A DNA stretch of 64,000 bases, from NCBI GenBank assembly GCA_951812825.1, contig OX638324.1, positions 2,331,141 through 2,395,140 of the forward strand. Direction: 5' to 3'. Below are positions 1,405 to 59,999 of the stretch, one piece after another. A program made the translations under genes and the position numbers. The notes under the pieces were generated by a model, which saw only the letters and a list, made by a program, of their open reading frames with translations, made no database searches and was not told the DNA's origin. Origin of the DNA: an uncultured Dehalococcoidia bacterium (GTDB lineage: Bacteria > Chloroflexota > Dehalococcoidia > Lucifugimonadales > GCA-2712585). Position 1 is the stretch's first letter. Each line of letters opens with the position of its first letter.

Positions 1405-3849
1405 ATGGGCAGGATGACTATGGGAGTCGGCGCACCTCCGCTGGAAGGGATTCGCGTTCTCGACCTATGCCAACCGGAGGGTCAGTTGTGCGGGCGGTTG
1501 CTGGCGGACTTAGGTGCGGAGGTGATTCTGGTGGAGCCGCCCGGAGGAGATTCGGGTCGTGGACTAGGGCCTTTTGCCGAGGGGGTGGCGGCGCCGGAGA
1601 GTAGTCTGTCGTTCGCCTATTTCAACGCAAACAAGAAGAGCATTGTGTTGGACTTGAGGGAGCATGGGGGTCGGGACCGGCTCAGGGAACTGTCTAAGGA
1701 TTTTGACGTTATCCTGGAGACGTTTGAACCGGGTGTGATGGAAGAGTGGGGGTTGGATTATCCTCAGCTATCTAAGGACAATCCGGAGCTAGTGATTGCT
1801 TCTATCACCGGCTTTGGGCTGTGTGGGCCATATAGTGGCTACAAGGCCCCAAGCGTCGTGTGCTCGGCGGTGGGGGGTGTCATGTACCTGTGCGGATCGG
1901 AAGATAGGCCGCCTCTGGCAGAGCTTGAGGACCAGCCCTATCATCTGGCCTCGGCCTTTGCGGCTACAGGAGTTTTGCTGGCGTTGAGGCAGCGTGAATC
2001 GACGGGCCGGGGCCAAATGGTAGAGATCTCGTGCCAGGAGGTTCAGGCGTTCCAGCAGCATATTCTGGTGAACTACAGCGCCAACGAGAACGTGCTGAAG
2101 CGGGCGGGCAGCCGGACTCCGGTGGGTGGAGGGATGCCCTACGGGATCTACCCAACCAGCGACGGATATTGTCATCTGGTGGTGATTGCCACGTCGCATT
2201 GGCGGAGCTTTGTCGATTGGATGGACGAACCCGACGCCCTCATGGACGACCTGTGGGACAACAGGCACATTCGGATAGCCAATCCGGACTTGATTGAGCA
2301 CCTGACGGGCGAGTTCACCCGGAAGTTTACTAAGGCGGAGTTCTTCCGTCAGGGCCAAGCGCGGCGGGTGACGACAGCGCCCGTCAATACGCCCGAGGAG
2401 TTTGTTGGCGATCCGCACGTGAGGGACGTGGGGTTGTTCGTGGAGGTGGAGCATTCTGCGTTGGGAAGGAGCAGGCTGGTTCGACCACCGTTCCGTCTGA
2501 GCGCCTCGCCTGCGATCATCGAGAAAGGTGCGCCGTTGTTGGGAGAGGACACGGAGGAGGTTCTAGGAGGAACATCTGTAGGAGGGCCAAGAAGTGTTGG
2601 AAGTCCAATATTGGGCCAGAATAGCCCGCGTAACAGTGCAGAGTCGGGACCGTTATCGGGGGTAAGGGTGTTGGACTTCAGCCAGGCGGTGGCGGGGCCT
2701 GTGTTGACGCAGCTGCTGGCGGCCTTCGGTGCTGAAGTCATCAAGGTGGAGTCGGAGTCGCACCAGCAGCGGGGAAGGACGCGAGAGGGCATGGACCCGA
2801 GGATTGTGCTCCAGCAGCGGGTGACGTTTGCCGACATGAATCGCAACAAGCGGTGCATCACCATCAACATGGGCACACACGAAGGTCGGGAGATTGCGAG
2901 GCGGTTGGTCCCGCATTGCGACGTGGTGGTGGAGAATTTCAGTCCGCGGGTGATGGACCGGTGGGGGTTGGGCTATGAGGGGCTGCGGGAGTTGCGAGAT
3001 GACATAATTATGATGCGCCTGCCCGGATTTGGGCTTTCCGGCCCCTACCGGGACTATGTGGGGTTGGCGGCTGTCGCCATGGCGGTTACCGGCATGTACC
3101 ATCAATGGTCTTACAATGACGGGTCGGAGCCGGCGGGGCCTCCCGTGTGGGCACCGGACTATCTGAGCGCGGCTTTTGGCGCAATGGCTCTTCTGGCGGC
3201 CCTGCGATATCGACGGCGCTCGGGGGAAGGACAGCTAATTGAATTGAGCCAGATGGACGCCACGGCCTATGTTATGGGGGCATCTTACCTGGACTATTTT
3301 GTTAACGGACGGAGTAAGGAGCCTGTGGGAAACGGGCATCCACAGTTTGCGCCACACGGCGTGTATCCGTGTCGGGGTGAAGACCGATGGTGTGCAATAG
3401 CGGTCACATGGGACGAGGAATGGGAGGCGCTGGTTGCGGCGATGGGAAGTCCGGCGTGGGCAAGGAATGGTGGATTGGCCACAGCCGAGGGTAGACTGCG
3501 GGAGAGGGAACGGCTGGACAAACTTATTGGAGAGTGGACGCGAGAGCGGTCTGCCAATGAGGTAATGGAGGCGCTGCAGCTGACCGGGGTGCCTGCCGCG
3601 TTGGTGCAGGACGGCAAGGACTTGTTCAGGGACCCGCATTTGAGGGCGCGGGGATTCATGAAGGCGATCGACCATCCTTTGACGGGGGCCGTTGAGTATC
3701 CCGACGTGCCCCTTCGATTGTGGGAGACGCCGGGACGCTTGGAGTGGTGGCATAGGATGGGTGAGGACAACGGGTACGTGTTCGGGGGGATTTTAGGGAT
3801 GAGCGAGGCGGAGATTGCATCTCTGCGAGAGGCGGGGGTGTTGAAGTGA
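1405..3849 (+). CDS. Tandem-fused family III (CaiB/BaiF) CoA-transferase with two complete domains in one chain
   Basis: 814-aa ORF. Residues ~13-385 and ~417-814 each open with the family signature: GIRVLDLCQPEGQLCGRLLADLGAEVILVEPPGG and GVRVLDFSQAVAGPVLTQLLAAFGAEVIKVES. The halves are joined by a Gly/Ser/Pro linker. The stop codon is TGA at 3847-3849. Confidence 0.85.
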   Translation: MGRMTMGVGAPPLEGIRVLDLCQPEGQLCGRLLADLGAEVILVEPPGGDSGRGLGPFAEGVAAPESSLSFAYFNANKKSIVLDLREHGGRDRLRELSKDFDVILETFEPGVMEEWGLDYPQLSKDNPELVIASITGFGLCGPYSGYKAPSVVCSAVGGVMYLCGSEDRPPLAELEDQPYHLASAFAATGVLLALRQRESTGRGQMVEISCQEVQAFQQHILVNYSANENVLKRAGSRTPVGGGMPYGIYPTSDGYCHLVVIATSHWRSFVDWMDEPDALMDDLWDNRHIRIANPDLIEHLTGEFTRKFTKAEFFRQGQARRVTTAPVNTPEEFVGDPHVRDVGLFVEVEHSALGRSRLVRPPFRLSASPAIIEKGAPLLGEDTEEVLGGTSVGGPRSVGSPILGQNSPRNSAESGPLSGVRVLDFSQAVAGPVLTQLLAAFGAEVIKVESESHQQRGRTREGMDPRIVLQQRVTFADMNRNKRCITINMGTHEGREIARRLVPHCDVVVENFSPRVMDRWGLGYEGLRELRDDIIMMRLPGFGLSGPYRDYVGLAAVAMAVTGMYHQWSYNDGSEPAGPPVWAPDYLSAAFGAMALLAALRYRRRSGEGQLIELSQMDATAYVMGASYLDYFVNGRSKEPVGNGHPQFAPHGVYPCRGEDRWCAIAVTWDEEWEALVAAMGSPAWARNGGLATAEGRLRERERLDKLIGEWTRERSANEVMEALQLTGVPAALVQDGKDLFRDPHLRARGFMKAIDHPLTGAVEYPDVPLRLWETPGRLEWWHRMGEDNGYVFGGILGMSEAEIASLREAGVLK

Positions 3850-3859
3850 GGGGTAAAGG

Positions 3860-5128
3860 ATGAACATGACGGGGGTTCCAACGGGTTCGCTGCAGGGCGT
3901 GCGGGTGCTGGACCTGACGCGGGTGCTGGCGGGGCCTTTCTGTACGAGGTTGATGGCGGACATGGGGGCGCACGTGGTGAAGGTGGAGCCGCCGGGGGGC
4001 GACGCGGCGCGGCAGTTTGAGTACATCACACCGGAGGGGGTTAGCGGGTACTTCATGCAGCAGAATTGCGGCAAGGAGGATATCTGCCTGGACTTGGCGC
4101 ATCCCGGGGCGAGGGAGGTGGTGGACCGGCTGGTACGAGTGTCGGACGTGGTGGTGGAGAATTTCAGGCCGGGTGTGATGGGGCGTTTGGGGTTGGACTA
4201 CGAGAGCCTGCAGCAGTTGAATCCGTCAATAATCTTGTGCAGTATCAGCGCCTTCGGGCAGAACAGCCCGTACGCTCATCGGGCTGCCGGCGACATGGTG
4301 GTGCAGGCGATGAGCGGCATAGCGTCGCTGACGGGTGATCCGGACGGACCGCCGCAGACGGTGGGGATGTCGATGAGCGACACCAGCGGCGGGGTGCATG
4401 CATTCGGGGCTATCTGCGCGGCGCTGTACCACCGGAGCGTCACGGGCAGAGGGCAGTTCATTGATCTGGCGCTGGCGGACTGCATTCTATGGCAGAACGA
4501 GTGGGCAAGCCAGTATCTGTTCCTGAGTGGAGGTGAACAGGTCCCACGGAGATATGGGAATCGACGGCCAATTCTGATACCCGGCAATCTATTTCGGGGT
4601 AAGGACGGCTGGGTGGCGATTGTGGCGTCGACGGACCCGGGCTGGCGGAATCTCACGGAGGCGATGGGACTGTCGCATTTGGCAGAGGATGGCCGGTTCG
4701 TGGACAGGGTGGCTCGGATGGCCCATCGTGATGAGCTGGAAGCGATAGTTGAGGAGTGGGTAGGGTCCTTCGAGTCGGTACAGGAGGTGGAGGAGTTGCT
4801 GGCGGACCGGGGAGGCGTCCAGTGCGGTCGGGTGCGTTCCTGGAAGGAGATGATGGAGGATGAACACGTGGAGCGTCGGCGGCTGGTGTCGTCGGTAGAG
4901 GACCCGCTTATGGGCGCGACTCCGGTGATGAACTCGCCGTTCAGGACGGAGGGCGTGAGGTCTGAGGCGCGGGGGCCGGCCCCGCTATTGGGACAGCATA
5001 CGTACGATGTGCTGGGGGAGCTGCTGGGGTGCTCGAACGGGGAGATTCTGGAGATGATTAACGCCAATTCGGTCCATGCAGACCCGGTAGTGATGATGGA
5101 GCTGGTGCAGAGGCTGATGGAGGGGTAG
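3860..5128 (+). CDS. Family III (CaiB/BaiF) CoA-transferase
   Basis: 422-aa ORF with GVRVLDLTRVLAGPFCTRLMADMGAHVVKVEPPGGD and AAGDMVVQAMSGIASLTGDPDGPP motifs. It starts 10 nt after the upstream gene. Confidence 0.85.
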   Translation: MNMTGVPTGSLQGVRVLDLTRVLAGPFCTRLMADMGAHVVKVEPPGGDAARQFEYITPEGVSGYFMQQNCGKEDICLDLAHPGAREVVDRLVRVSDVVVENFRPGVMGRLGLDYESLQQLNPSIILCSISAFGQNSPYAHRAAGDMVVQAMSGIASLTGDPDGPPQTVGMSMSDTSGGVHAFGAICAALYHRSVTGRGQFIDLALADCILWQNEWASQYLFLSGGEQVPRRYGNRRPILIPGNLFRGKDGWVAIVASTDPGWRNLTEAMGLSHLAEDGRFVDRVARMAHRDELEAIVEEWVGSFESVQEVEELLADRGGVQCGRVRSWKEMMEDEHVERRRLVSSVEDPLMGATPVMNSPFRTEGVRSEARGPAPLLGQHTYDVLGELLGCSNGEILEMINANSVHADPVVMMELVQRLMEG

Positions 5129-5135
5129 TGGGGAG

Positions 5136-5159
5136 GCGAGCGGTTCGCGAACCGCTCGC
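5136..5159 (+). terminator. Perfect 24-nt palindrome GCGAGCGGTTCGCGAACCGCTCGC downstream of the CoA-transferase operon. It may be a terminator or a REP-like hairpin.
   Basis: 12+12 perfect inverted repeat 8 nt after the stop at 5128. No T-tract follows. The core CGGTTCGCGAACCG recurs at 8307-8326. Confidence 0.4.
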
Positions 5160-5190
5160 AGGGGTGGTTTACGGGAGAAGTGGGTGTGTG

Positions 5191-6323
5191 TGATCTCGTT
5201 CAGATAGATATGAGACGGATGGAGTTGTAAGGGAAATAGAAAGGGACCATCCTTTGGGTGAGATAGACCGAAGGAGGTCCCTTTCATGAGGGTAGTAGGA
5301 CTACCCAAATCATTCTATCAGCTTTCGAAGAGGACACCAGCACAGCTGACGTTGAAAGCGCAAGATCGGATGAGGTGGGTGAGTGGCTGGAATAGGTTGA
5401 GGCAACGGGGAGTGACGGCATCGGAAGCAGCAGAGGCACTGGGACTGTCACGCTGTAGCCTGTACCGGTGGGACAAAGCCCTCAGGGAGGAAGGGCCGGC
5501 GGGCTTAGTAGACAAGAGTCGACGACCCAAGAGGGTGAGGCGGCCTACGTGGACTGTTGAGTTAGCTAGGGCAGTGCTAAAGCTGAGGGAAGAGTATCCT
5601 AGATGGGGGAAGGACAAGCTGGCGCCGTTGCTCAGGGATAAGGGCTGGGAGGTGTCCACATCCATGGTGGGCCGCATTCTGACTCGCTTGAAGGCCCGTG
5701 GGGTGTTGAAAGAGCCGCCCCGTGACGGTATATCGGCCCGTAGGCGCACGCGTCCGCGTCCCTATGGGGTACGGAAGCCGAGGGAGTATCAGGTCATAGA
5801 ACCGGGGGACATCGTGCAGGTGGACACTTTGGACGTGCGCCCTCTGCCTGGCATGGTGCTCAAACACTTCACCGCTCGGGACATGGTCTCCAGGTGGGAC
5901 GTGCTGGAGGTGCACACAAGGGCCACGTCCACACTGGCGGCCCGGTTCCTTGAGTCCATGCGGCGACGGTTTCCCTTCCCCATCAAGGCAGTTCAGGTGG
6001 ATGGAGGCTCCGAGTTCATGGCGGACTTCGAGACCGCTTGCCAGAAGTTCGATATCAAACTCTTCATACTGCCGCCGCGCTCTCCCAAGCTCAACGGCCA
6101 TGTGGAGCGGGCCCAGCGTACTCATACCGAAGAGTTCTACGAGCTCTATGATGGCGAACTGGATGTCTCTACCCTCAACCGGGCTCTGCTCAAATGGGAG
6201 CAAATCTACGACACCTTCCGACCTCATCACTCCCTGGACGGACTAACCCCTTTGCAGTATCTTCTCCAGTGCCACCCATCCTTGGTCCCTTCTAATCTGT
6301 CTCACATGTACTGAACGAGTACA
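5191..6323 (+). mobile_element. IS481-like insertion sequence, copy 1 (1133 bp)
   Basis: Boundaries were defined by where identity with the inverted copy at 58867-59999 stops. The imperfect terminal inverted repeats are TGATCTCGTTCAG... and ...CTGAACGAGTACA, matching at 11 of the first 13 positions. The element is flanked by GTGTG on both sides, a candidate 5-bp target duplication. Confidence 0.85.
5286..6314 (+). CDS. IS481-family DDE transposase (HTH plus rve integrase core)
   Basis: 342 aa. An N-terminal HTH (AEALGLSRCSLYRWDK) is followed by DDE residues in the contexts VQVDT, VQVDGGSEF and NGHVERAQRT. It is identical to the ORF at 58876-59904 except for one residue (S/T). Confidence 0.9.
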   Translation: MRVVGLPKSFYQLSKRTPAQLTLKAQDRMRWVSGWNRLRQRGVTASEAAEALGLSRCSLYRWDKALREEGPAGLVDKSRRPKRVRRPTWTVELARAVLKLREEYPRWGKDKLAPLLRDKGWEVSTSMVGRILTRLKARGVLKEPPRDGISARRRTRPRPYGVRKPREYQVIEPGDIVQVDTLDVRPLPGMVLKHFTARDMVSRWDVLEVHTRATSTLAARFLESMRRRFPFPIKAVQVDGGSEFMADFETACQKFDIKLFILPPRSPKLNGHVERAQRTHTEEFYELYDGELDVSTLNRALLKWEQIYDTFRPHHSLDGLTPLQYLLQCHPSLVPSNLSHMY

Positions 6324-10904: not shown

Positions 10905-11327
10905 CTACCAGGCGGCGAGGAGGATGCCGATGATGGCATAGGTGATTATGGGGTAGCCGGAGTTGATTAGGAAGAGGCGGAGGCTGCGGCTTTCGAAGCT
11001 GTAGGTGGTGGCGTAGGAAGTGGCTATGGCTCCTATGGATACGAGCAGGCCTAGGAGGAGGCCTTCGGCTGCGCCATTTGCCCCCATGCCTTGAATGAGC
11101 AGGGCGAGGACGAAGGTGAAGATGAGGGCGCTTATGATGGCGACGACGTAGGGGAGCCATTGCATGGGGGTGCCTTTCATGGCCTCCATGTCTTCCATGG
11201 TGAGGCCGACGTCGGCCATCCAGGGCTTGGCCCAGGTGCGGTACCAGGCTGCGCCGAGGAGCTGGTTGATGACGACTCCAACGATGATTGCGAGGTAGTT
11301 GAGGGATCCGAGGTCAAGGTTGTCCAT
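10905..11327 (-). CDS. DUF1761-family small membrane protein
   Basis: The preferred start is ATG 11327 (MDNLDLGSLNYLAIIVGVVINQLLGAAWY...), preceded by AGGAG. There are four predicted hydrophobic helices. The pattern matches DUF1761 as I recall it. Confidence 0.65.
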   Translation of the reverse strand: MDNLDLGSLNYLAIIVGVVINQLLGAAWYRTWAKPWMADVGLTMEDMEAMKGTPMQWLPYVVAIISALIFTFVLALLIQGMGANGAAEGLLLGLLVSIGAIATSYATTYSFESRSLRLFLINSGYPIITYAIIGILLAAW

Positions 11328-14700: not shown

Positions 14701-15361
14701 CGGACAGACGGTTGCCCTGGTGGGCCGGTCAGGCGCGGGGAAGACGACCTCGGCGCACCTGCTGCTGCGGTTCTGGGACCCGACGGAGGGTTCGATCAAC
14801 CTGGACCTGCATAATCTGAAGGAATTTGAGCTGGACGAATTGCGTCATTCAATTGCGTTGGTGTCGCAGGATACGTACCTGTTCAACACGACCATCCGGG
14901 AGAACCTGAAGGTGGCCAAGCCCGACGCTACGGACGAGGAGATTGTGGCGGCGGCGAAGCAGGCGAACGCGGATGAGTTTATCGCAGCGATGCCGGAGGG
15001 CTACGACACCAACGTGGGCGAGCGGGGAGTGCAGCTTTCGGGCGGACAGAGACAGCGGATAGCCATCGCGAGGGCGGTGCTCAAGGGCGCGCCGGTGCTG
15101 GTGCTGGACGAGGCAACGTCGCACCTGGACGCGGTGAACGAACGGCTGGTGCGGCAGGCCCTTTCGCGGCTGATGTCGGACCGGACGACGCTGGTGATTG
15201 CCCACCGGCTTTCGACGGTTCGGGACGCGGACAAGATTCTGGTGCTGGAAGAGGGAGAGCTGGTGGAGCAGGGGACGCACGAAGAGCTGCTGGCGAAGGG
15301 CGGGTTGTATTCGCATCTGGTTTCGGCGCAGGTTCTGCCCAGCGAGGGTGCTAGCGACTGA
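11747..15361 (+). CDS. Fused two-half ABC exporter (TMD-NBD-TMD-NBD), CydDC-like
   Basis: There are two Walker A sites (GRSGAGKST and GRSGAGKTT), two LSGGQRQR signatures and two Walker B sites (LLLDEA and LVLDEA). Each is preceded by a six-helix TMD. The preferred start is ATG 11747. The CydD/CydC-type assignment is tentative. Confidence 0.85.
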   Translation: MFFNRRLFGFTEGVRLRLVLALIFGLLTAASGVSRLALSGYAIALVIRGAPTEEIILAVVGVVASAVLRGVFQYLKEMTGHLASVRVQAKMRRELYQRALILGPGALDQKRAGDVLVSLVEGVDQLETYYGEYLPQVAVAALTPIGIFIFVAFLDVPTAAIYLGFALFTLFAPLLFHHWNAVSSARRREVYGDLSAEFLDSVQGLATLKAFGQSRARGQMLASKARDVYQKTMRILFMNVGTTGATWFGITAGAAVALGFGAVRVADDSMSLATLLVVLMLGVEVFRPLRELTMLYHKGMLGMSAATAVFDLLDAKPQVEDVEGKSEAAPSLQPTLKFEDVTFAYPTGRSDALSNLSFELKAGETLGVVGRSGAGKSTLVWLALRFFDPSKGRILLGGQDIRSMPLATLRKHVAVVAQDTYLFHGTVADNLKLGNPDATQEEMQEAARAANADQFITSLPNGYDTVIGERGIRLSGGQRQRIAIARALLKDAPILLLDEALSNVDTENESIIQQALNRLMQGRTTLVIAHRLSSVIAADRILVLEEGRLEEQGVHRELMRQRGVYRSLMEAQMETESVELAPLLATATAEDPVAETYHGDWTGQGSQEYLQEPSIISATAEEMSWFRVFGRLLKLVSPWKTALTFTFILGILRVFVLIGIGVTGALIVRQVALGGEFGLLLVVLGVMAVLTPILHWAESWVSHDMAFRLLAEMRIAMYEKLDPLSPAYLVRRRSGDIVGLVTSDIETVEYFFAHTIAPAFVAVTVPGAVLVTLAIFQWPLALILLPFLFLVALTPFYANKTLDRVASQSRQQLGEINAHMVDSVQGMREIVAFGHEEQRLAEVQENQRKFAAYRITFFKHLTIQKVAIEVCIGLGGIAVLGAGAYFATQGNLTGTLLPLLSLIALSSFIPVSEVAQVGKQLADTLGSSRRVFAVHDEPVPVQDGKGVHAPREAAQGSAVAFEEVDFTYGRGLPQALKRVEFSIEPGQTVALVGRSGAGKTTSAHLLLRFWDPTEGSINLDLHNLKEFELDELRHSIALVSQDTYLFNTTIRENLKVAKPDATDEEIVAAAKQANADEFIAAMPEGYDTNVGERGVQLSGGQRQRIAIARAVLKGAPVLVLDEATSHLDAVNERLVRQALSRLMSDRTTLVIAHRLSTVRDADKILVLEEGELVEQGTHEELLAKGGLYSHLVSAQVLPSEGASD

Positions 15362-21698: not shown

Positions 21699-21974
21699 AT
21701 GGCAAGGGTACAGGTAATAATCCCAGGCGAAGATCAGGATCGGTTCGTGAGGCAGGCACGGAAATAAGGTCTTAGCTTCAGCGCTTGGCTGAGCGAGGCG
21801 GCCAAAGAACGTCTGCGAGCGCGGCAAAGAGACGAACGGTTCAAGTCCGTAGAAGATTTGACTCGGTTCTTTGAGGAATGCGATGCCAGGCAGGGGCCGG
21901 GGGTGGAGCCGGACTGGGAAGAGCATAAGCGCGTAATCGGAGAATCTCTAATGCGCGGGCTGCCGAAGACATGA
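21699..21974 (+). pseudogene. vapB: VapB-type (ribbon-helix-helix) antitoxin interrupted by an in-frame TAA
   Basis: The reading is MARVQVIIPGEDQDRFVRQARK-TAA(21765-21767)-GLSFSAWLSEAAKERLRARQ...SLMRGLPKT. It is one frame throughout and ends in an ATGA overlap with vapC. Confidence 0.6.
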
Positions 21975-22369
21975 TTGTTGTAGACACCAATCTCTTCATA
22001 TACGCGGTAGGCAGGCCCCATCCTCTGGGTTCGCGCGCCCGCGATTTCTTCAACGCTGCTCTCCGGAATTCTCATCCGCTTTGCGCGTCTGCGGAAGTGT
22101 TGCAGGAGTTGCTGCATGCGTATTTGCCCATTGGAAGGACGGGGACGTTCGCAGATGCCATTGACTTGATTTGCCGAGCCGGGGTTGAGATATGGACGCT
22201 AGACGAAGAGGACGTGATTTTAGCGCGGGGACTCTACAAACAATATCCAATGCTGGAGGTGAGGGACTTGTGCCATCTGGCAAGCTGCCGAAGGCGTGGT
22301 GTAGTAGAACTTAAGACGTTTGACAAAAAGCTGGAGAAGGTGGGCACTGAGGTCTTGGGTGGCGGTTGA
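21971..22369 (+). CDS. vapC: PIN-domain toxin VapC
   Basis: 132 aa. It has MIVVDTNLFIYA (the first acidic PIN residue) and later conserved acidic positions. Its start overlaps the vapB stop (ATGA). Confidence 0.85.
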   Translation: MIVVDTNLFIYAVGRPHPLGSRARDFFNAALRNSHPLCASAEVLQELLHAYLPIGRTGTFADAIDLICRAGVEIWTLDEEDVILARGLYKQYPMLEVRDLCHLASCRRRGVVELKTFDKKLEKVGTEVLGGG

Positions 22370-26052: not shown

Positions 26053-28104
26053 ATGCTTAGCGGACCCAAACCCGGCGAATCGCTCAGACTGGATATTGAT
26101 GACGGTACCGGACTTCGTGTAGCTAGTGCGCGGTTCGAGTCCGACTCGAAGTTTACGTGGTCGCTGTTTGACGGATTCGATCGCATTCGGATACTCACCT
26201 ACTCGGCTGGAGTAGGCGCTATTGTGCGGATGCTGGATAAGCACGACTTTAGTGACTTCGAATGCGTTTTTGGTTGCGAAAGCACGCTGCGAACCTTGAA
26301 GGATATTATGGCGTTCCAGCAGGTTGCGATCGGTGACACGAGGGCTGCTATCAAGGGTCTCTCTGACCAACGCCATTCCTTCATTCTTGGTCGAGTAAGA
26401 GAGGGCCAGGCCCGATTTCGAGTCTTACGCAAGGAAATAGCACATGCAAAACTTTACTTATTGGAAAACCTGGAGTCTGGCAATACCCGCGCCCTCATAG
26501 GCTCTGCGAACCTATCGGAAACTGCTTTTGGTGGACGACAGTCGGAGACCCTTGTGTGCTTCGACAATGACCCTGCTGCCTGGGGTCACTATCTGAGAAT
26601 GTACGAGGCCATTAGGGACCAGGCTTCGGACGAGATACCGTTGCCGACAGAGCGGGTGACGAACGAGACTATTCGACTTGATGAAGTACCAATATTGGAC
26701 GCCAACGATCTCTCTACGTTAGTGATTGATACAACCGAGGCGGATAATCAGTCAGGCAACGGCTATGGAATAGCTGTTCCTACACAGATAGAACGAATAG
26801 AGAAGATGAAAAAAGCCATCCCACCAGTTGTGGCTAGCGTCATTCCTCCACCGCGAAACGGAAGGCAGAGCATAACTCCCCAGACAAGACGGAGCATTGT
26901 CAAGGAATACAGTCGAATCCGCGTCGTGCAGTCTGATGAGGAAGCGGATCACCGTCAGATGTCAATTGACCGGGATATGAAAAGCGTCACCCTATTTGGT
27001 GAGCCCTTCCCTCTGAATTGGGATTCTGCTACCGCAAGGAGGGATGCACAGATTCTGGTGGAATTCTTCGGCAACTACGAGGGCACGTTTGAGGGGGGAA
27101 TGGGAGTGGAGAGGCTGCAGAGGGATTATTTCATCCTATGGTCATGGTTATACTTCTCTCCATTCATGTGTGACATGAGGACAAGGGCGGGCCACGACGG
27201 GGATATATTCAGATATCCTTCCTTTGCCATCGTCTATGGTAAACCTTCCTGCGGTAAATCCAGCCTCATCGACACGTTAATGACCTCCATGTTTGGTAGG
27301 GCGTATAACGTGGACAAGAGGGAGTTTACGAAGAGCAGACTCAGGGACATACAGTACGCATACAGACGGTTTCCCGCCGTATTCGATGATATCGGTAGGG
27401 CTGCGATACGCAATCACGGAGAGGACGCAATCAAGGACGAGATTCCGCCGTTGGTCTCCGAATATCCCTGCTTTGTTCTGTCGATGAACCAGGATCTCAA
27501 GGCGTTCAGCGACCAGGTAGTTAAGCGCTGCCTTATGATTTACACCACTACGGCTCTTCCCTCCTATAAGGAGAGCCTACGCCATGAGTTGCATTTGAAG
27601 ATTCAAGCTGTGCGTAGGGAATTGTCCACAAATCTATACAGGGCATACCTAAACGGAGTCTTGGATAGATTAGGCGAGGTTGTAACCCCCGAGGACTGGC
27701 TTCAGTTTTCCTCAAGTATCCTATCAAACTTAATTGGCGATCTGATTGACGATGATCTGCCAAAGTGGTGCGCGCCGGTAGGCTGGAACGATTATGCAGA
27801 CAAACGTCATGAGAGAGTGCAGGCGCAAATAGACCATCTGTTGAGACAGGCGACGAGGATGAAGAAGGAAGGGGACCGGCCCACGGGCTGGATGTTGGAA
27901 GACGATAAGGTCATTGTGATTGAGCAAACCGATACCTTCGGGCGACGTGAGTTTCAATGGGACAATGTTCCTTCGACTCTCATCGATGATAGCGCCAGTG
28001 TTGGGGGACGAACTGTCTTGAATCGGCCTGAACTTGAAGAATTCATAGGCCGGAATCTCAGAGGAAGACGAATCGGGCTGCTGAGCAGGCTATTTGGCGG
28101 TTAA
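26053..28104 (+). CDS. Fusion of an N-terminal PLD/HKD-family nuclease domain with a C-terminal SF3-helicase-like P-loop NTPase
   Basis: 683 aa. The single HKD-type motif is AHAKLYLLE...ALIGSANLSETAF (H131, K133, GSxN 150-153). Walker A is GKPSCGKS (396-403). The Walker B-like motif is AVFDD (442-446). A hydrophobic strand ending in Asn, FVLSMN (474-479), resembles SF3 motif C. G+C of sampled lines is 48-52%. Confidence 0.7.
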   Translation: MLSGPKPGESLRLDIDDGTGLRVASARFESDSKFTWSLFDGFDRIRILTYSAGVGAIVRMLDKHDFSDFECVFGCESTLRTLKDIMAFQQVAIGDTRAAIKGLSDQRHSFILGRVREGQARFRVLRKEIAHAKLYLLENLESGNTRALIGSANLSETAFGGRQSETLVCFDNDPAAWGHYLRMYEAIRDQASDEIPLPTERVTNETIRLDEVPILDANDLSTLVIDTTEADNQSGNGYGIAVPTQIERIEKMKKAIPPVVASVIPPPRNGRQSITPQTRRSIVKEYSRIRVVQSDEEADHRQMSIDRDMKSVTLFGEPFPLNWDSATARRDAQILVEFFGNYEGTFEGGMGVERLQRDYFILWSWLYFSPFMCDMRTRAGHDGDIFRYPSFAIVYGKPSCGKSSLIDTLMTSMFGRAYNVDKREFTKSRLRDIQYAYRRFPAVFDDIGRAAIRNHGEDAIKDEIPPLVSEYPCFVLSMNQDLKAFSDQVVKRCLMIYTTTALPSYKESLRHELHLKIQAVRRELSTNLYRAYLNGVLDRLGEVVTPEDWLQFSSSILSNLIGDLIDDDLPKWCAPVGWNDYADKRHERVQAQIDHLLRQATRMKKEGDRPTGWMLEDDKVIVIEQTDTFGRREFQWDNVPSTLIDDSASVGGRTVLNRPELEEFIGRNLRGRRIGLLSRLFGG

Positions 28105-28222
28105 GGCAGGAAGGTCTTGCATTGCGGGCTATTCTGGTGGGAGGGTAAGTCCGGCGGGTGGGGGTTTGGCGTAGGGGATAGTGGGGGTTGGGTGAGTTTG
28201 AGTTGGGGTGGGAAGGAGTTTT

Positions 28223-29812
28223 GTGAGTAGGATATTGTTGTTTTTTGCGATGCTGGTGGTTGGGGTTGCTGCGGCTGTCACGCTGGGTTGTTCGGGGGGT
28301 GATGGGACGTCGGGAGTGCCGACGGCGACTGTGATGCCTGAGGCTGCGGAGGGCCGGCCTGGGAGTGCAACGGTCGCGACTCCGTCGGCAACGTCGCGGG
28401 TGACGGCTGGGGCGACGCGTGAAAATACTACGTCGGAGATGACTCCAGCGTTGGGGGCGGGCTACGATTCCAGTGAGAATATGTTCCGTCTGTTTTCTGG
28501 GCGGGACCACGAATCTGTCGACACACTTGAGGCTATGGAGCTTGCTGTTGCCAACAGGGACAGGTCGATGGCGCCGGTGCTTATTGAGATGCTTCGATTC
28601 TTCGAGGACTATGTACATGCGATCGAGGCCCGGAAGGCGCTCACGGCGATAACGGGCCGGGTGGTTGAGGGGAATGAGGGGTCGTGGAGCGGGTGGATGG
28701 AGTGGCTGGTCAATAACGCCGACGAGCACCATCCGCCCGCCGGATATCTGGACTGGAAGATCGGGTTGATGAGTCTGATTGACCCCAGGTTCGAGGAGTT
28801 TCTGGCTCCGGCGGCTGAGGGGTCTCGCGTAAATGTGTTTGAGATTGCGTGGGGAGGCGTCGGGCCCGACGGGATTCCAGACCTTCAGGACTCGCCCGTA
28901 GTTTCGGCGGAAGAGCAGGACTATCTCCAGCCGGGGGACCGGGTCTTTGGAGTGTCGATCAACGGAGAGCATCGGGCATACCCGCATCGGATCATGAATG
29001 CTCACGAGATGGCCAACGACGTGCTGGGGGGCGAGCCCATTGCCCTGGCCTATTGAACGCTTTGCGGCACCGGAATCGTGTATTCCGCAAAGATAAACGG
29101 GGAGCCAACCACTTTCGGAACGTCGGGGTTGCTGTATCGCAGCAACAAGGTGATGTACGATCGTCTGACCAATAGTCTGTGGAACCAGTTTACGGGGGAG
29201 CCTATCATCGGACCGCTGTGGAACTCCGGGATGCAGCTGGATTTTTTCCCTGTGCTTGTGACGACGTGGGAGGAGTGGGTGGAGCTTCATCCGGATACGA
29301 CGGTGCTGGACAGGGAAACGGGGCATTATCCAGTGACGTACTATCTGCCGGAGGAGCACCGGGAGGCGATCTACTATGATTACTTTAACTCGCCGGGAAC
29401 GATGTTCGCGGTGCCGGACCGGGACGGCCGGCTTGCAACGAAGGACGTGGTGCTGGGGGTGCAGGTGAATGACAGCTACAAGGCGTACCCGGTTGCGGCG
29501 CTGCAGGAGGAGAGGATTGTCAATGACGCGGTGGGAGGCGAAGGGGTGGTGGTGTTGGGGTCGGCGGCGAGCCAGGGGGCGAGGGCCTATTTGCGAGGGG
29601 ACAGAGTCTTCGAGGCAGCGGGGGAGGATGGGGGAGTGGGGATTCCATCGGTGATTGCGGATGCTGATGGAGGCAGGTGGCAGGTGACGGAGGAGTTTCT
29701 GGTCAATGCGGCCGACTGGTCGGAGAAGCTGGCCCGGATTCCCACGCACACTTCGTACTGGTTTGGGTGGTTCCAGTTCCACGGGGATACGGAGCTTTAT
29801 ACGGGGCGGTGA
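28223..29812 (+). CDS. DUF3179-family lipoprotein read through an in-frame TGA (candidate selenocysteine at 29054-29056)
   Basis: The GTG start at 28223 follows GGAAGGAG. There is a signal peptide with ...TLGC. The two track ORFs (28208-29056 and 29078-29812) share one frame with only the TGA between them. Read-through gives ...HRAYPHRIMNAHEMANDVLGGEPIALAY-U-TLCGTGIVY...GTSGLLYRSNKVMYD, matching the DUF3179 core, where a Cys is conserved at this position. Confidence 0.65.
29060..29092 (+). promoter_or_regulatory. SECIS-like hairpin immediately downstream of the in-frame UGA
   Basis: The lower stem pairs CTTTG (29060-29064) with CAAAG (29088-29092). The upper stem pairs CGGAAT (29071-29076) with ATTCCG (29082-29087). 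The apical loop is CGUGU, which contains GU. The loop lies about 20 nt from the UGA. Confidence 0.5.
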
Positions 29813-32817: not shown

Positions 32818-33071
32818 ATGGCGAAGTTCTTGTTCCAGGCAGACTATAGCCCTGCTGGAGTGGCAGGGCTACGCAACGAGGGCGGTACAGGGCGGAAGAG
32901 GATGTTTGCGGACATGGGCGGGACAATCGAGTTCTTCTATATGCCTTTGGCAGAGAGGACCTCTACATGATTGTGGACCTGCCTGACGATGCTGCGGCCG
33001 TAGCTGCTTGAATGGCGGCGACGGCATCCGAAGTGTTGGCTGACGGCGTATACTGCATAGCACTGGTTTGA
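32818..33071 (+). pseudogene. Remnant of a GYD-domain protein gene
   Basis: MAKFLFQADYSPAGVAGLRNEGGTGRKRMFADMGGTIEFFY... matches the GYD/COG4274 N-terminus. A frameshift is then needed to read ...DLYMIVDLPDDAAAVAA, followed by an in-frame TGA and a truncated tail. It is too short to appear in the ORF track. Confidence 0.45.
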
Positions 33072-34777
33072 TGATTCCTGTGAACCGCATATATTTCCCT
33101 ACTATGCTTGGGTTGGCCTTGGTGTTGGCGATTGTGGGCTGTCAAAGGCCGGATGATGAATCCGACGCCTCGACGCCTGAGTCCGGGGCTACATTCATTG
33201 TGACGGCAGTTCCGGCATCGACGACGGCGGCTGCTGAAGCGGCTCCAGCCTCTCCGACGGCGGGGCCTACGGCGACGCAGGCAACCACATTGCCGGCTCC
33301 GTCGACGCCAGCGCCCACTGCTGCGCCTGCCGCGCCCTTCCCTTCGCCTACGAGACGGCCCATACCACGGGAGACGCCCACGCCCACGCCGGACAGGACT
33401 CGTTCGCCCACGCCTACGCCTATTGCTGTTCCGGCAGTCTACGAGTCCAACAAGAATATGTTCCTGCTACTGTCGGAGTTCATTCATCCTGAAGAGTCAT
33501 CGTTGGCGGCGTTGGAGAGGGCCAGGGCTGAGAGGGATGTCTCCCAGGTGCATGTCATATTGGAGGCGCTGCCGTTCTTCACCCGCGACCTTGCGATGGC
33601 CGGCATAGAGGCGGTGGGCCACCTTACGGGGCAGGATTTCGGTTTCGACCTGAGGAGGTGGAGAGAGTGGCTTGGGCCCAGGCACGAGGAGTATGCGCCA
33701 CCTTCCGACTATGCCCGCTGGAAGGCCAATATGCTTTCTCTGATTGACCCGGAACTGGGCGATCTGATGAAGCAGGCAATAGATGGAGGATCGAGGGCTA
33801 ATCTTACCGAGATTGTATGGGGCGGGGTACGAACGGACGGCATTCCGCCGCTGGAGTTTCCGCCGCACGCGAGGCCGGAGGGAGCGCTATATCTGCTGCC
33901 TGACGACAGGGTGTTTGGTGTTTCCATCAACGGTGAGCACCGGGCGTACCCGCTGAGGGTGATGAATGCCCACGAACTGGCGAACGACGTGCTGGGCGGG
34001 GAGCCAATTTCGTTAGTGTATTGAACACTCTGCGGCACCGGAATCGTGTATTCCGGCTTCGTAAACGGAGAGGAGACAACCTTCGGGACTTCCGGGATGC
34101 TGTACCGGAGCAACAAGGTTATGTATGACCGGGCAACCCGCTCTTTGTGGCATCAGTTCACGGGGGAGCCGATTATCGGCCCCCTGGCCAACTCCGGCAT
34201 CAAGCAACCCTTTTTCCCGTCCGTAGTCACCACGTGGGAGGAGTGGCTGGCGGAGCATCCCGACACGACGGTGTTGACGAATGAAACTGGCTATTACAGG
34301 GCGGAGTTCTACGTTCCTGAAGACAATCCACGGGCCATCTACTACGAGTATTTTACTACGGATGAGGTTATGTTCCCGGTGTGGCTTCGGGACCCGAGCA
34401 TAGAGCCGAAGAGGGTGGTTGTGGGACTCTTGACGAGCGAGAGAAAGAAGGCGTACGTGGTCGATGACTTGCGGGCGGCGAGGGTGATTAACGACACGGT
34501 GGGGGACGTGGAGGTAGTGATTGCGGCGTCGGGCGAGTCGCGCTCGGCCCGCGCCTACGAAAGGCAGGGGGAGACGTTTACGGCGGCGGGCGGCGGGGAC
34601 GCGGAGGCGACGCCCCGGTTCCTGGTGGACTCCAACGGAGCAAGATGGGAGGTGACCGAGGAGGCGCTGGTCCTTGAGAGCGACCCCTCAAAGACGCTGC
34701 CGCGGCTTGCTACGCTGACCTCCTTCTGGTTTGGGTGGTACCAGTATCACCCGGACACGGAGATTTACCGGCCCTAG
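33071..34777 (+). CDS. DUF3179-family lipoprotein paralog read through an in-frame TGA (candidate selenocysteine at 34022-34024)
   Basis: It has a signal peptide with the lipobox ...AIVGC and a Pro/Thr/Ala linker. The track ORFs 33068-34024 and 34046-34777 share one frame. Read-through gives ...HRAYPLRVMNAHELANDVLGGEPISLVY-U-TLCGTGIVY...GTSGMLYRSNKVMYD. Confidence 0.65.
34038..34056 (+). promoter_or_regulatory. SECIS-like hairpin downstream of the second in-frame UGA
   Basis: CCGGAAT-CGTGT-ATTCCGG is a 7-bp stem with the same CGUGU loop. It starts 13 nt after the UGA. Confidence 0.5.
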
Positions 34778-52074: not shown

Positions 52075-54126
52075 ATGAAGACGCACATGTCAAGACCGTG
52101 GAATGTTTATGCCCTGATAGCCGGCATATTGGCCTTAACTCTGTTCGTATTAGCGTGTGGGACTTCCGAAGAAACTGCAACTCCCACCGCCGCACCCCTT
52201 CCCACACCCATCCCTATAGACATCGCCGGTATCACCGCTGACTTCCAGAGAATTGTCCAACAGGAAGTAGAAAAAGTTCAGCCCCCTCTGTCTGAGGATG
52301 AAATACGCAATCTCATTGAGGCAGCCGTCAGCAGCGGTGTGCCCGAAGGTTTAACCGCCTCTCAGGTCCAGGCAATGGTAGATGATGCGGTTTCAGCCGC
52401 CGCTGACGAGGCAGTCACCGAGGGGGACGTCACAGCGGCCATCGGTCAAGCCATCGCCGACGCGCTTGCTTCAGCCTCGGAACCCCTGTCGAAAAGCGAA
52501 ATAGAGAGCATAGTAAGGGCCGCCATACCGGAGCCCACCCCTGCTCCCACCCCTGTTGCAACCGCCGTACCCACCGCCACACCTGTGCCGACCACCCCGG
52601 CAGCGCCAAAGGTCCCGGTTGCGTCTCGATTGAGGCTGGCCGTGAGTCCGCCGGCAACTCAGAAGATGATGGCCCATCTGGGGGCACGCAGCGTAATGCC
52701 TACCCTGTTTCCCATGTATGACTTCCCCATTCACCGAAATTACATAACGGCTGACTACACCAAGGAAGGCTTGGCCGAAGACTGGACTCTGTCTTCCGAC
52801 GGAAAGCTATGGAATTTCAAGCTAAGACAGGGAGTCAACTTCCACAAGGGGTTTGGCGAGTTAACCGTCAAGGACATTGTCACTACCCACACGGTGTACC
52901 TGGGACCAACTTCTCGGGCGGGCAGCGGTCCGATGAGAGACACTACTTCGGACAATTTTGAGATCGTCAGCGACCATGAGTTTAACTTCACGACACCAAA
53001 ACCCTCCCCCGATCTATTGGAGTGGTGGAGCGACGCCCGGCAGTTCTCCATAATCAGCGACACCTATCTAAATGCTGTTGGCGAAGACGTATACAATCAA
53101 TCCCCAATTGGCACCGGACCGTGGAGCTTTGTTAGCCTTGAAATAAACGTCGGCGCCGTATTCGAAAGGAACGAGGAGCATTTCCGAAAAGTTCCCGAGT
53201 TTGCAGAACTGGAAGCGAGGTATATGTCGGAGGATGCAGTCCGCCTGGCGAGTTTGCTCACCGGAGAGAATCACATCGCCCAGGTGGCCCGAGCGTCACA
53301 CACCCAGGTGCGTGCGCAGGGACATCAGATTGCCACGGCGTCTATCCCCTTCGTTCAGGTCTGGACATCCGTTGGAGGTCTCTATTTCCCCGATGCCCCA
53401 ACGTATGATCCCGACTCGGCCCTGTTGGACCCCAACGTGCGCCTCGCCTTGAATCTGGCGGTTGACAAGCAGGCCATTGTCGACAGCTTCCTGAACGAAC
53501 TGGCCACGGTAGGGTCCGTCCTCAGCATTCCTCCGGGACATCAACACTTTGATCCCAGGTGGGATCCCCATCCGTACGACCCGGAAAGAGCCCGGCAACT
53601 AATTGCCGATGCAGACGCGGAAGGGTATTCCTTCAACGTCACTACGGCCCCTTCGGGCAGGGTTCCTGAAGTCGTCGACATCGCGGAAAGTTACGTTGGA
53701 TACTGGACTAGCATTGGCCTCAACCCAACTCTCGAAATCGCCGAGCCTGCGGATATCACCTTCAGAGGACGCAACAGAGGCAACGGCAACAGCGTAACCG
53801 TTGCCGCTCACTCGGCTACTCCTCTGCAGGTTGGGTGGCTGCCCTTCATTCTCAGTACGAAAATCGGAATGCGCGGCTCTTACTGGGAATTCGATGACCT
53901 GGACGCCCTATGGCTTGAATTCATCGAGCTCGCGGGTGATGAAGAACGCTCCGCCAAGCTAGGAGAGATTGGAGACTACATATACGACAACACACTTATA
54001 GGTCCAATCATCTTCGTTCCTTCCCAGGTGGCCTTCAATCCAGGGGTAATTGAGGACTACACCGTCAACTATATGGGCTACGGCCCCATCGTTCACCACG
54101 AGTACACGGTGCCCATCTACGAATAG
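52075..54126 (+). CDS. ABC transporter substrate-binding lipoprotein, family 5 (peptide/nickel, OppA/DppA-like) with an N-terminal repeat extension
   Basis: 683 aa. It has the lipobox VLAC and four helical repeats of about 18 aa, followed by a Pro/Thr/Ala linker. An SBP_bac_5-like body follows (WTLSSDGKLWNFKLRQGVNFHKGFGELTVKD...). Confidence 0.8.
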   Translation: MKTHMSRPWNVYALIAGILALTLFVLACGTSEETATPTAAPLPTPIPIDIAGITADFQRIVQQEVEKVQPPLSEDEIRNLIEAAVSSGVPEGLTASQVQAMVDDAVSAAADEAVTEGDVTAAIGQAIADALASASEPLSKSEIESIVRAAIPEPTPAPTPVATAVPTATPVPTTPAAPKVPVASRLRLAVSPPATQKMMAHLGARSVMPTLFPMYDFPIHRNYITADYTKEGLAEDWTLSSDGKLWNFKLRQGVNFHKGFGELTVKDIVTTHTVYLGPTSRAGSGPMRDTTSDNFEIVSDHEFNFTTPKPSPDLLEWWSDARQFSIISDTYLNAVGEDVYNQSPIGTGPWSFVSLEINVGAVFERNEEHFRKVPEFAELEARYMSEDAVRLASLLTGENHIAQVARASHTQVRAQGHQIATASIPFVQVWTSVGGLYFPDAPTYDPDSALLDPNVRLALNLAVDKQAIVDSFLNELATVGSVLSIPPGHQHFDPRWDPHPYDPERARQLIADADAEGYSFNVTTAPSGRVPEVVDIAESYVGYWTSIGLNPTLEIAEPADITFRGRNRGNGNSVTVAAHSATPLQVGWLPFILSTKIGMRGSYWEFDDLDALWLEFIELAGDEERSAKLGEIGDYIYDNTLIGPIIFVPSQVAFNPGVIEDYTVNYMGYGPIVHHEYTVPIYE

Positions 54127-58866: not shown

Positions 58867-59999
58867 TGTACTCGTTCAGTACATGTGAGACAGATTAGAA
58901 GGGACCAAGGATGGGTGGCACTGGAGAAGATACTGCAAAGGGGTTAGTCCGTCCAGGGAGTGATGAGGTCGGAAGGTGTCGTAGATTTGCTCCCATTTGA
59001 GCAGAGCCCGGTTGAGGGTAGAGACATCCAGTTCGCCATCATAGAGCTCGTAGAACTCTTCGGTATGAGTACGCTGGGCCCGCTCCACATGGCCGTTGAG
59101 CTTGGGAGAGCGCGGCGGCAGTATGAAGAGTTTGATATCGAACTTCTGGCAAGCGGTCTCGAAGTCCGCCATGAACTCGGAGCCTCCATCCACCTGAACT
59201 GCCTTGATGGGGAAGGGAAACCGTCGCCGCATGGACTCAAGGAACCGGGCCGCCAGTGTGGACGTGGCCCTTGTGTGCACCTCCAGCACGTCCCACCTGG
59301 AGACCATGTCCCGAGCGGTGAAGTGTTTGAGCACCATGCCAGGCAGAGGGCGCACGTCCAAAGTGTCCACCTGCACGATGTCCCCCGGTTCTATGACCTG
59401 ATACTCCCTCGGCTTCCGTACCCCATAGGGACGCGGACGCGTGCGCCTACGGGCCGATATACCGTCACGGGGCGGCTCTTTCAACACCCCACGGGCCTTC
59501 AAGCGAGTCAGAATGCGGCCCACCATGGATGTGGACACCTCCCAGCCCTTATCCCTGAGCAACGGCGCCAGCTTGTCCTTCCCCCATCTAGGATACTCTT
59601 CCCTCAGCTTTAGCACTGCCCTAGCTAACTCAACAGTCCACGTAGGCCGCCTCACCCTCTTGGGTCGTCGACTCTTGTCTACTAAGCCCGCCGGCCCTTC
59701 CTCCCTGAGGGCTTTGTCCCACCGGTACAGGCTACAGCGTGACAGTCCCAGTGCCTCTGCTGCTTCCGTTGCCGTCACTCCCCGTTGCCTCAATCTATTC
59801 CAGCCACTCACCCACCTCATCCGATCTTGCGCTTTCAACGTCAGCTGTGCTGGTGTCCTCTTCGAAAGCTGATAGAATGATTTGGGTAGTCCTACTACCC
59901 TCATGAAAGGGACCTCCTTCGGTCTATCTCACCCAAAGGATGGTCCCTTTCTATTTCCCTTACAACTCCATCCGTCTCATATCTATCTGAACGAGATCA
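58867..59999 (-). mobile_element. IS481-like insertion sequence, copy 2 (1133 bp, inverted relative to copy 1)
   Basis: It is the reverse complement of 5191-6323, with a single visible nucleotide difference (59769 versus 5421 region, Thr/Ser codon). The flanks are ...AAGGGGA and GAACCTG..., with no convincing target duplication. Confidence 0.85.
58876..59904 (-). CDS. IS481-family DDE transposase
   Basis: 342 aa, identical to 5286-6314 except residue 45 (T versus S). Confidence 0.9.
   Translation of the reverse strand: MRVVGLPKSFYQLSKRTPAQLTLKAQDRMRWVSGWNRLRQRGVTATEAAEALGLSRCSLYRWDKALREEGPAGLVDKSRRPKRVRRPTWTVELARAVLKLREEYPRWGKDKLAPLLRDKGWEVSTSMVGRILTRLKARGVLKEPPRDGISARRRTRPRPYGVRKPREYQVIEPGDIVQVDTLDVRPLPGMVLKHFTARDMVSRWDVLEVHTRATSTLAARFLESMRRRFPFPIKAVQVDGGSEFMADFETACQKFDIKLFILPPRSPKLNGHVERAQRTHTEEFYELYDGELDVSTLNRALLKWEQIYDTFRPHHSLDGLTPLQYLLQCHPSLVPSNLSHMY

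Follow-up and report, generated by a model that had tools for sequence, protein, structure and literature searches.

Two DUF3179 lipoprotein genes of an uncultured Dehalococcoidia bacterium with an in-frame UGA probably read as selenocysteine

A stop codon in the middle of a conserved protein domain raises the question of whether the gene is damaged, split or recoded. This question is posed by a stretch of 64,000 nucleotides from an uncultured Dehalococcoidia bacterium (GenBank assembly GCA_951812825.1, contig OX638324.1, positions 2,331,141 to 2,395,140 of the forward strand; hereafter the window, with coordinates counted from its first letter), in which two plus-strand open reading frames (ORFs), 28208-29056 and 29078-29812, share one frame and have the TGA at 29054-29056 as their sole separator. 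A first-pass annotation, made from the letters alone, had described this arrangement and suggested that the two ORFs form a single gene for a DUF3179 lipoprotein whose TGA encodes selenocysteine (Sec). Comparison with homologous proteins and loci leads to the same reading for this gene (paralog 1) and for a second one nearby (paralog 2): both are, with a probability that we put at roughly 0.87, selenoprotein genes in which UGA would be read as Sec.

Read through with Cys in place of the TGA, the product of paralog 1 spans positions 2-292 of the 292 positions of the Pfam domain DUF3179 (PF11376; E 6e-79) and scores 265.9 bits against a gathering cut-off of 27, i.e. it forms the one continuous domain that had been expected. 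The read-through ORF (28223-29812, plus strand) has 529 codons including one Sec codon, which lies inside the domain (28868-29791, residues 216-523). The peptide context is ...EPIALAY-[TGA]-TLCGTGIVYS, and the peptide crossing the UGA would read ...IALAY-U-TLCGTGIVYSAK. The TGA, read as Sec, is the U of U-T-L-C; the TGC at 29063-29065 supplies the Cys of the U-x-x-C motif, presumably the resolving one; and the true stop at 29810-29812 is again a TGA, with no hairpin after it. Paralog 2 (33068-34777, plus strand; start TTG 33068 or ATG 33071, stop TAG) lies ~5 kb downstream and is ~53% identical to paralog 1. Its in-frame TGA at 34022-34024, likewise interpreted as Sec, stands in the same motif (...EPISLVY-[TGA]-TLCGTGIVYS), and the halves on either side match PF11376 positions 2-64 and 75-292.

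Which residue the TGA replaces can be read from homologs. Among 5.8 billion proteins searched, 3,256 matched, and the best 120 of these were examined at the TGA column: Cys stands there in 113 of the 117 that align, the others having Asp (2), Ser (1) or Trp (1), and the remaining three are fragments that end or start at the TGA. The DUF3179 family as a whole comprises 12,971 cluster representatives at 50% identity (E up to 0.001), and among the best 150 of these Cys occupies the column in 142 of 148 aligned sequences; at the +3 position, 131 have Cys, nine Ser, six Thr and two Asn, so that 17 of 148 (~11%) lack a Cys there. The TGA thus stands at the first Cys of a C-x-x-C pair, where the most conserved Cys of the family aligns, just as the first-pass annotation had proposed. 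A column devoid of conserved Cys, which it had named as counter-evidence, was found in neither sample, and the consensus that it had given, Y-C-P-L-C/T-G, comes close to the actual family, which mostly has CTLCG or CPLCG, with Ser or Thr in some members in place of the second Cys.

At the nucleotide level, a scan of one genome per GTDB species yielded 80 loci, 79 of them labelled Dehalococcoidia or Chloroflexota. Together with the window, these loci hold 88 homologous DUF3179 sites, where the codon is TGA in 81 cases and TGC in seven; at least one TGA site is present in 77 of the 81 sources, and the TGA-bearing proteins range down to ~47% identity with paralog 1. Locus L081, which comes from an independent metagenome assembly and matches 3.9 kb of the window at 98.6% identity, shares the TGA, the hairpin (described below) and the downstream sequence. 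Past the TGA, the residues FGTSG and YRSNKVMYD are invariant, and four-fold codons there vary freely (1.1-1.8 bits), which argues that the frame is translated past the TGA: selection acts on the downstream sequence at the protein level. A single in-frame stop could also come from a pseudogene or from a mistake in sequencing or assembly, but neither accounts for a TGA at 81 of 88 sites from 77 sources and in an independent assembly, for strong purifying selection on both sides of the TGA or for a TGA common to both window paralogs, and we give such explanations next to no weight.

Gene callers, for their part, yield two products, and database fragments with this division exist (P0109, P0105, P0120), as would be expected of a truly split gene whose N-terminal part ends at the TGA and whose C-terminal part starts at GTG 29078. 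Yet the break would fall inside a β-hairpin of one compact domain in a structural model (see below), the seven codons from the TGA to the GTG (TLCGTGI) are conserved as protein in all relatives, the GTG lies within the loop of the RNA hairpin and has no ribosome-binding site, and the 113 homologs with Cys at the column are continuous. A split gene is therefore very improbable; the separate halves that the first-pass annotation thought might turn up in relatives are database splits, artefacts of the same TGA.

Codes in which UGA is reassigned genome-wide to Trp or Gly exist in some uncultured lineages. Here, however, TGA terminates 10 of the 32 Pfam-supported genes in the window, including paralog 1 itself, and no in-frame TGA other than those at the two DUF3179 sites interrupts a supported gene, which leaves reassignment a negligible probability. 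The annotation had argued in the same way from three other gene ends, two of which hold (3847-3849 and 15359-15361); the third, 21972-21974, is unconfirmed and overlaps the start, at 21971, of a PIN/VapC-like ORF (21971-22369; MIVVDTNLFIYA...; judged by eye), an overlap of the kind found in toxin-antitoxin pairs. Taken together, the conservation of the TGA, the selection downstream of it and the use of TGA at gene ends to all practical purposes exclude error, pseudogene, split gene and code reassignment.

What, then, could mark these two UGAs for recoding? Both are followed on the plus strand by a hairpin of the selenocysteine insertion sequence (SECIS) type: CGGAAU-CGUGU-AUUCCG at 29071-29087 in paralog 1 (6 bp stem, 5-nt loop at 29077-29081) and CCGGAAU-CGUGU-AUUCCGG at 34038-34056 in paralog 2 (7 bp stem). 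The hairpin starts 14-15 nt past the UGA, and both paralogs and all relatives have a UGA-to-loop spacing of 20 nt. In the TGA-forms it is built by the codons GGA AUC GUG UAU UCC for G-I-V-Y-S, and these codons are under RNA-level constraint. Codons +5 to +10 have a synonymous entropy of 0-0.38 bits. All 67 of 67 sequences write the Tyr of the hairpin as TAT; elsewhere in the 76-codon stretch examined, the four remaining Tyr codons are TAC in 41-97%, the one directly before the TGA being TAT in 59%. Similarly, the Gly codon of the hairpin is GGA in 62 of 67, GGC being the commonest at five of the seven other Gly positions of the stretch. Cys-forms have similar peptides written in other codons, with which no hairpin is possible.

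The pairing itself is nearly invariant. Across 63 distinct sequences, the core pairs (18-23 with 29-34) hold in essentially all, and the changes within the stem are all wobbles (four from A-U to G-U, two from G-C to G-U and one from C-G to U-G); the seventh pair is open in 37, the others having C-G (20) or G-C (6), and the loop G at position 2 (column 25) and the U next to it (column 26) are found in 63 of 63. Over the 81 TGA sites, the closing pair is mismatched twice, is a U-G wobble once and has once changed on both sides, from C-G to A-U.

The bacterial SECIS model of PMC13188914 describes an apical loop of 3-9 nt, an upper stem of 4-16 bp, a UGA-to-loop distance of 16-37 nt, a G at one or both of the first two loop positions, with G or U as the usual next base, and a minimum free energy of -7.5 kcal/mol or lower. 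Both window hairpins agree with it in loop (5 nt, CGUGU), stem (6 and 7 bp), loop G and 20-nt spacing; that of paralog 2 has an energy of -8.8 kcal/mol alone and -15.0 in context, and with the hairpin enforced 59 of 64 relatives reach -7.5 kcal/mol or lower. A known counterpart is the SelB/SECIS-dependent recoding of E. coli fdhF by its bacterial SECIS (bSECIS), which likewise has an in-ORF stem-loop 3′ of the UGA, a 5-nt loop with G at position 2 and then U, and the 20-nt distance. Unlike in fdhF, the stem in the window is short (6-7 bp), its sequence is unrelated and no Rfam model matches it. By analogy, recoding would proceed by the standard bacterial mechanism: the hairpin would recruit SelB and Sec-tRNA(Sec) and thereby outcompete release factor 2, and the terminal TGA of paralog 1, having no hairpin, would terminate.

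Several observations weigh against recoding to Sec. In paralog 1, the hairpin-containing fold is of marginal stability, with an energy of -7.3 kcal/mol versus -13.4 for a competing fold; neither a gathering-threshold Rfam scan of the window nor a permissive scan of 29030-29130 found a SECIS family; and a stem so close to invariant offers little strict compensatory covariation. Moreover, neither the 64-kb window nor the related loci, 1 Mb in all, yielded selA, selB, selD or tRNA-Sec, ARAGORN likewise giving no tRNA-Sec in either, and Sec decoding by the source genome is assumed from its class and from the literature. That literature includes Dehalococcoidia metagenome-assembled genomes with 46-49 selenoprotein genes in BSepDB (PMC13326102) and the co-occurrence of SelA and SelB in most sponge-symbiont bins, from various phyla (PMC5649159). 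As for the RNA alternatives, the minimum-energy fold of paralog 1 (CUUUGCGG/CCGCAAAG) was rejected as the functional structure, as it is confined to the window, relatives having broken outer pairs and pairing in 66% of cells; a frameshift-site match in the permissive scan (E 0.95) is a chance match.

The want of Sec machinery in the window and related loci would also suit a recoding in which the hairpin directs UGA to a residue other than Sec, i.e. to Cys by a SelB-like factor and a variant tRNA, or to Trp or Cys by near-cognate read-through, and one locus (L082) has TGG (Trp) at the site with the hairpin kept. Against this stand the nature of the site, which is the catalytic-type Cys of a family with catalogued Sec forms, the fit of the hairpin to the SelB-type SECIS model, the large selenoproteomes documented in Dehalococcoidia and the 2x label of the L082 contig, owing to which the TGG may be an error. 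We therefore consider non-Sec recoding improbable and UGA-directed insertion of Sec the preferred reading. The L082 site itself (L082:3571-3573; ENA ERZ25766727, contig ctg350188_2x_l; P0104), with its hairpin CCGGAATCGTGTATTCCG, could stem from a recent Sec-to-Trp mutation or be an error, the contig being labelled 2x coverage.

Two candidates for Sec machinery next to DUF3179 genes were rejected. A selD-like neighbour of the AIR-synthase family, detected by tblastn in ~7 loci with an E. coli SelD query, is by NCBIfam ThiL, with TsaE after it; thiL and tsaE lie directly upstream of Sec-DUF3179 in L044, L054, L055, L057, L061 and L063 (about 4300-5800, minus strand). A SelA-like pyridoxal phosphate (PLP) enzyme upstream in ~12 loci has equal scores on PF03841 (48 bits) and Aminotran_5, and is probably not a true SelA. 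In these ~12 loci, DUF3179 stands directly between such a PLP enzyme on its upstream side and an Ldh_2 family dehydrogenase on its downstream side (e.g. L066:4592-5722, L025:4256-5398 and L025:7516-8673). Scans of the window and loci for further selenoprotein genes, one looking for Cys at ±3 of a TGA and one requiring a hairpin, gave no convincing candidate; the minus-strand TGA at 11316 belongs to a junk frame.

Is this, then, a new selenoprotein family? The first-pass annotation had not counted DUF3179 among the established bacterial ones, wrongly so. The 'DUF3179 domain-containing protein' (pfam11376, UxxC/T, one Sec; example MBW1804167.1) is a listed selenoprotein family in PMC9312934 (2022) and is listed again in PMC13188914 (2026; example MDJ0986319.1). 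Both catalogues credit Zhang & Gladyshev 2007 (PMC1976440), a text that predates the Pfam name DUF3179. Judged by sequence-level traits, all of which agree, the window genes are new Dehalococcoidia members of this known family and not a new family: they share the Pfam domain, a single Sec in first position of U-x-x-C, the existence of Cys homologs and a SECIS-like hairpin in the coding region after the UGA. The source study dealt with the Olavius symbiont metagenome, its selenoproteins being mostly from the delta-1 deltaproteobacterium, whereas the window members belong to Dehalococcoidia, and they differ from the catalogued family in being predicted lipoproteins, in having an extra N-terminal helical domain and in occurring as two paralogs 5 kb apart.

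What specialists expect of the DUF3179 family is unchanged; a selenoprotein family that has so far rested on computation gains a well-documented clade. There is also a consequence for annotation, as public databases routinely carry such a gene as two false 'DUF3179' fragments (P0109, P0105 and P0120 being examples), which are to be joined and marked as selenoproteins.

How Sec and Cys forms relate to each other is suggested by a neighbour-joining tree, in which the Sec state occurs in both paralog clades. One Cys clade (L035, L037, L038 and L041), corresponding to the abundant group of 540-residue proteins at the head of the protein search, is nested within the Sec clade, and the remaining Cys group lies outside it. 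On the simplest reading of this one distance tree, Sec would have been present before the duplication, and one lineage would later have gone back to Cys and lost the hairpin. In three genomes, a Cys-form (..AQCVLCG..) lies 1.7 kb upstream of a Sec-form (L010:4884/6592, L011:4915/6592 and L014:4811/6592), so both versions coexist in tandem. One locus labelled 'Actinomycetes bacterium' (L003, JAPOVR010000002.1) encodes a Sec-DUF3179 76% identical to paralog 1; it may be a mislabelled or mis-binned contig.

What would the Sec residue do? A Sec/Cys pair at the most conserved residue is a standard sign of a redox-active catalytic Cys and as such offers a testable handle on DUF3179. For structural context, we used the AlphaFold model of P0001, a Cys homolog 54% identical to the paralog 1 protein (mean predicted local distance difference test score, pLDDT, 85.5, and >90 over most of the folded part). 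The model comprises a disordered linker, an all-helical domain and a β-rich DUF3179 domain with an internal repeat of a strand-strand-helix-strand-strand module; the first Cys closes a β-strand, and C-T-L-C-G forms a β-hairpin turn. Near-invariant residues (P0001 numbering) are A-Y-P, Arg264, His269-Glu270, Asp274, Ser-Gly 309-310, Ser-Asn 315-316, Asp321 and Trp328; His is invariant at a single position. Neither a PDB sequence search nor a Foldseek comparison of the model with the PDB returned a meaningful solved relative (best E 0.27, TM-score <0.13).

Two known types of site come to mind. With extracytoplasmic thiol:disulfide oxidoreductases (DsbA-like and TlpA/ResA-like, including Sec forms), DUF3179 shares the U/C-x-x-C motif, the predicted non-cytoplasmic location, a second Cys that can be replaced by Ser or Thr, and a fusion: P0126 (1,004 aa) has a membrane anchor and joins a pair of DUF3179 domains, each with CPLC, to a TlpA-like AhpC/TSA thioredoxin domain (WCPPC). 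Unlike in the thioredoxin fold, the motif sits in the model on a β-hairpin turn rather than at a helix N-terminus, the fold is duplicated and β-rich, and there is no match to a thioredoxin-family Pfam domain. With the knuckle of rubredoxins and zinc ribbons, the motif shares its local geometry and C-x-x-C-G, but DUF3179 has one such knuckle and no second ligand pair: it contains a single C-x-x-C and one invariant His, and the second Cys, in contrast to the first, gives way to Ser, Thr or Asn in ~11% of representatives. Since the first Cys is kept and the second is dispensable, a catalytic Cys suits the pattern better than a metal site. Other DUF3179 representatives have CarboxypepD_reg-like or fibronectin type III domains (P0171, P0135).

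By analogy, DUF3179 may be an extracytoplasmic selenol/thiol redox enzyme recycled by thioredoxin-like partners. Sec would act as the redox-active catalytic nucleophile, form a selenenylsulfide with the +3 Cys after dealing with an oxidised substrate, and be reduced again by a thioredoxin-like (TlpA-type) partner. This proposal is tempered by its footing, i.e. one fusion protein, the predicted model of a homolog and an analogy, as well as by a gene neighbourhood that is not conserved and by the lack, among the PDB entries searched, of a solved structure resembling the fold. A wider version goes further still and is, in our view, speculative and rather doubtful as a whole: DUF3179 could represent a structurally new class of extracytoplasmic selenol/thiol oxidoreductase, with U/C-x-x-C on a β-hairpin and TlpA-like recycling, whose Sec form would be ancestral, predate the duplication and be near-universal in a large marine, possibly sponge-associated Dehalococcoidia clade. 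If true, this would be an unusually widespread lipoprotein selenoenzyme, and its near-invariant minimal SECIS could be used as a lineage-specific search model.

The remainder of paralog 1 (all plus strand) fits a protein outside the cytoplasm. Its likely start is GTG 28223, with AAGGAG five bases ahead at 28213-28218; GTG 28208 is an alternative. The sequence reads as a signal peptide with a lipobox (..AAAVTLG-C) at 28223-28291, the codon of the putatively lipidated Cys being 28289-28291. The lipobox pattern is MSR-ILLFFAMLVVGVAAAVTLG-C in paralog 1 and ...LALVLAIVG-C in paralog 2 (Cys codon 33140-33142, plus strand), and L-x-x-A-x-A-C-G-S is conserved in homologs at this point. A low-complexity linker rich in Pro, Thr, Ala and Ser follows at 28292-28459, the matching stretch of the modelled homolog having pLDDT <50, and then, at 28460-28867, an all-helical N-terminal domain that has no Pfam match and is conserved in both paralogs and in homologs. 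From this order of signal peptide with lipobox, disordered linker, helical domain and DUF3179 domain, we infer that the product is an extracytoplasmic, membrane-anchored lipoprotein.

The gene neighbourhood of the DUF3179 genes is kept only in the two closest relatives. Directly upstream of paralog 1, the gene at 26053-28104 encodes a PLD/NgoFVII-like nuclease domain and a P-loop and has a GC content of 51% versus 59% for the window. The closest relatives, L001 and L081, lack this gene, synteny with L081 starting only at 28136, and it looks like a recent insertion. Its product and that of the ORF at 52075 are both 683 aa long, a coincidence, as the proteins are unrelated. Most of the window is bracketed by two inverted copies of an IS481-family insertion sequence, 1,133 bp long, 99.8% identical and 52 kb apart (5191-6323, plus strand, and 58867-59999, minus strand). 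The region 258-20364 holds three coenzyme A (CoA)-transferase family III genes (one of them two-domain), a luciferase-like monooxygenase, MaoC and an HpcH/HpaI aldolase, a gene content that we take to be typical of SAR202-type Dehalococcoidia.

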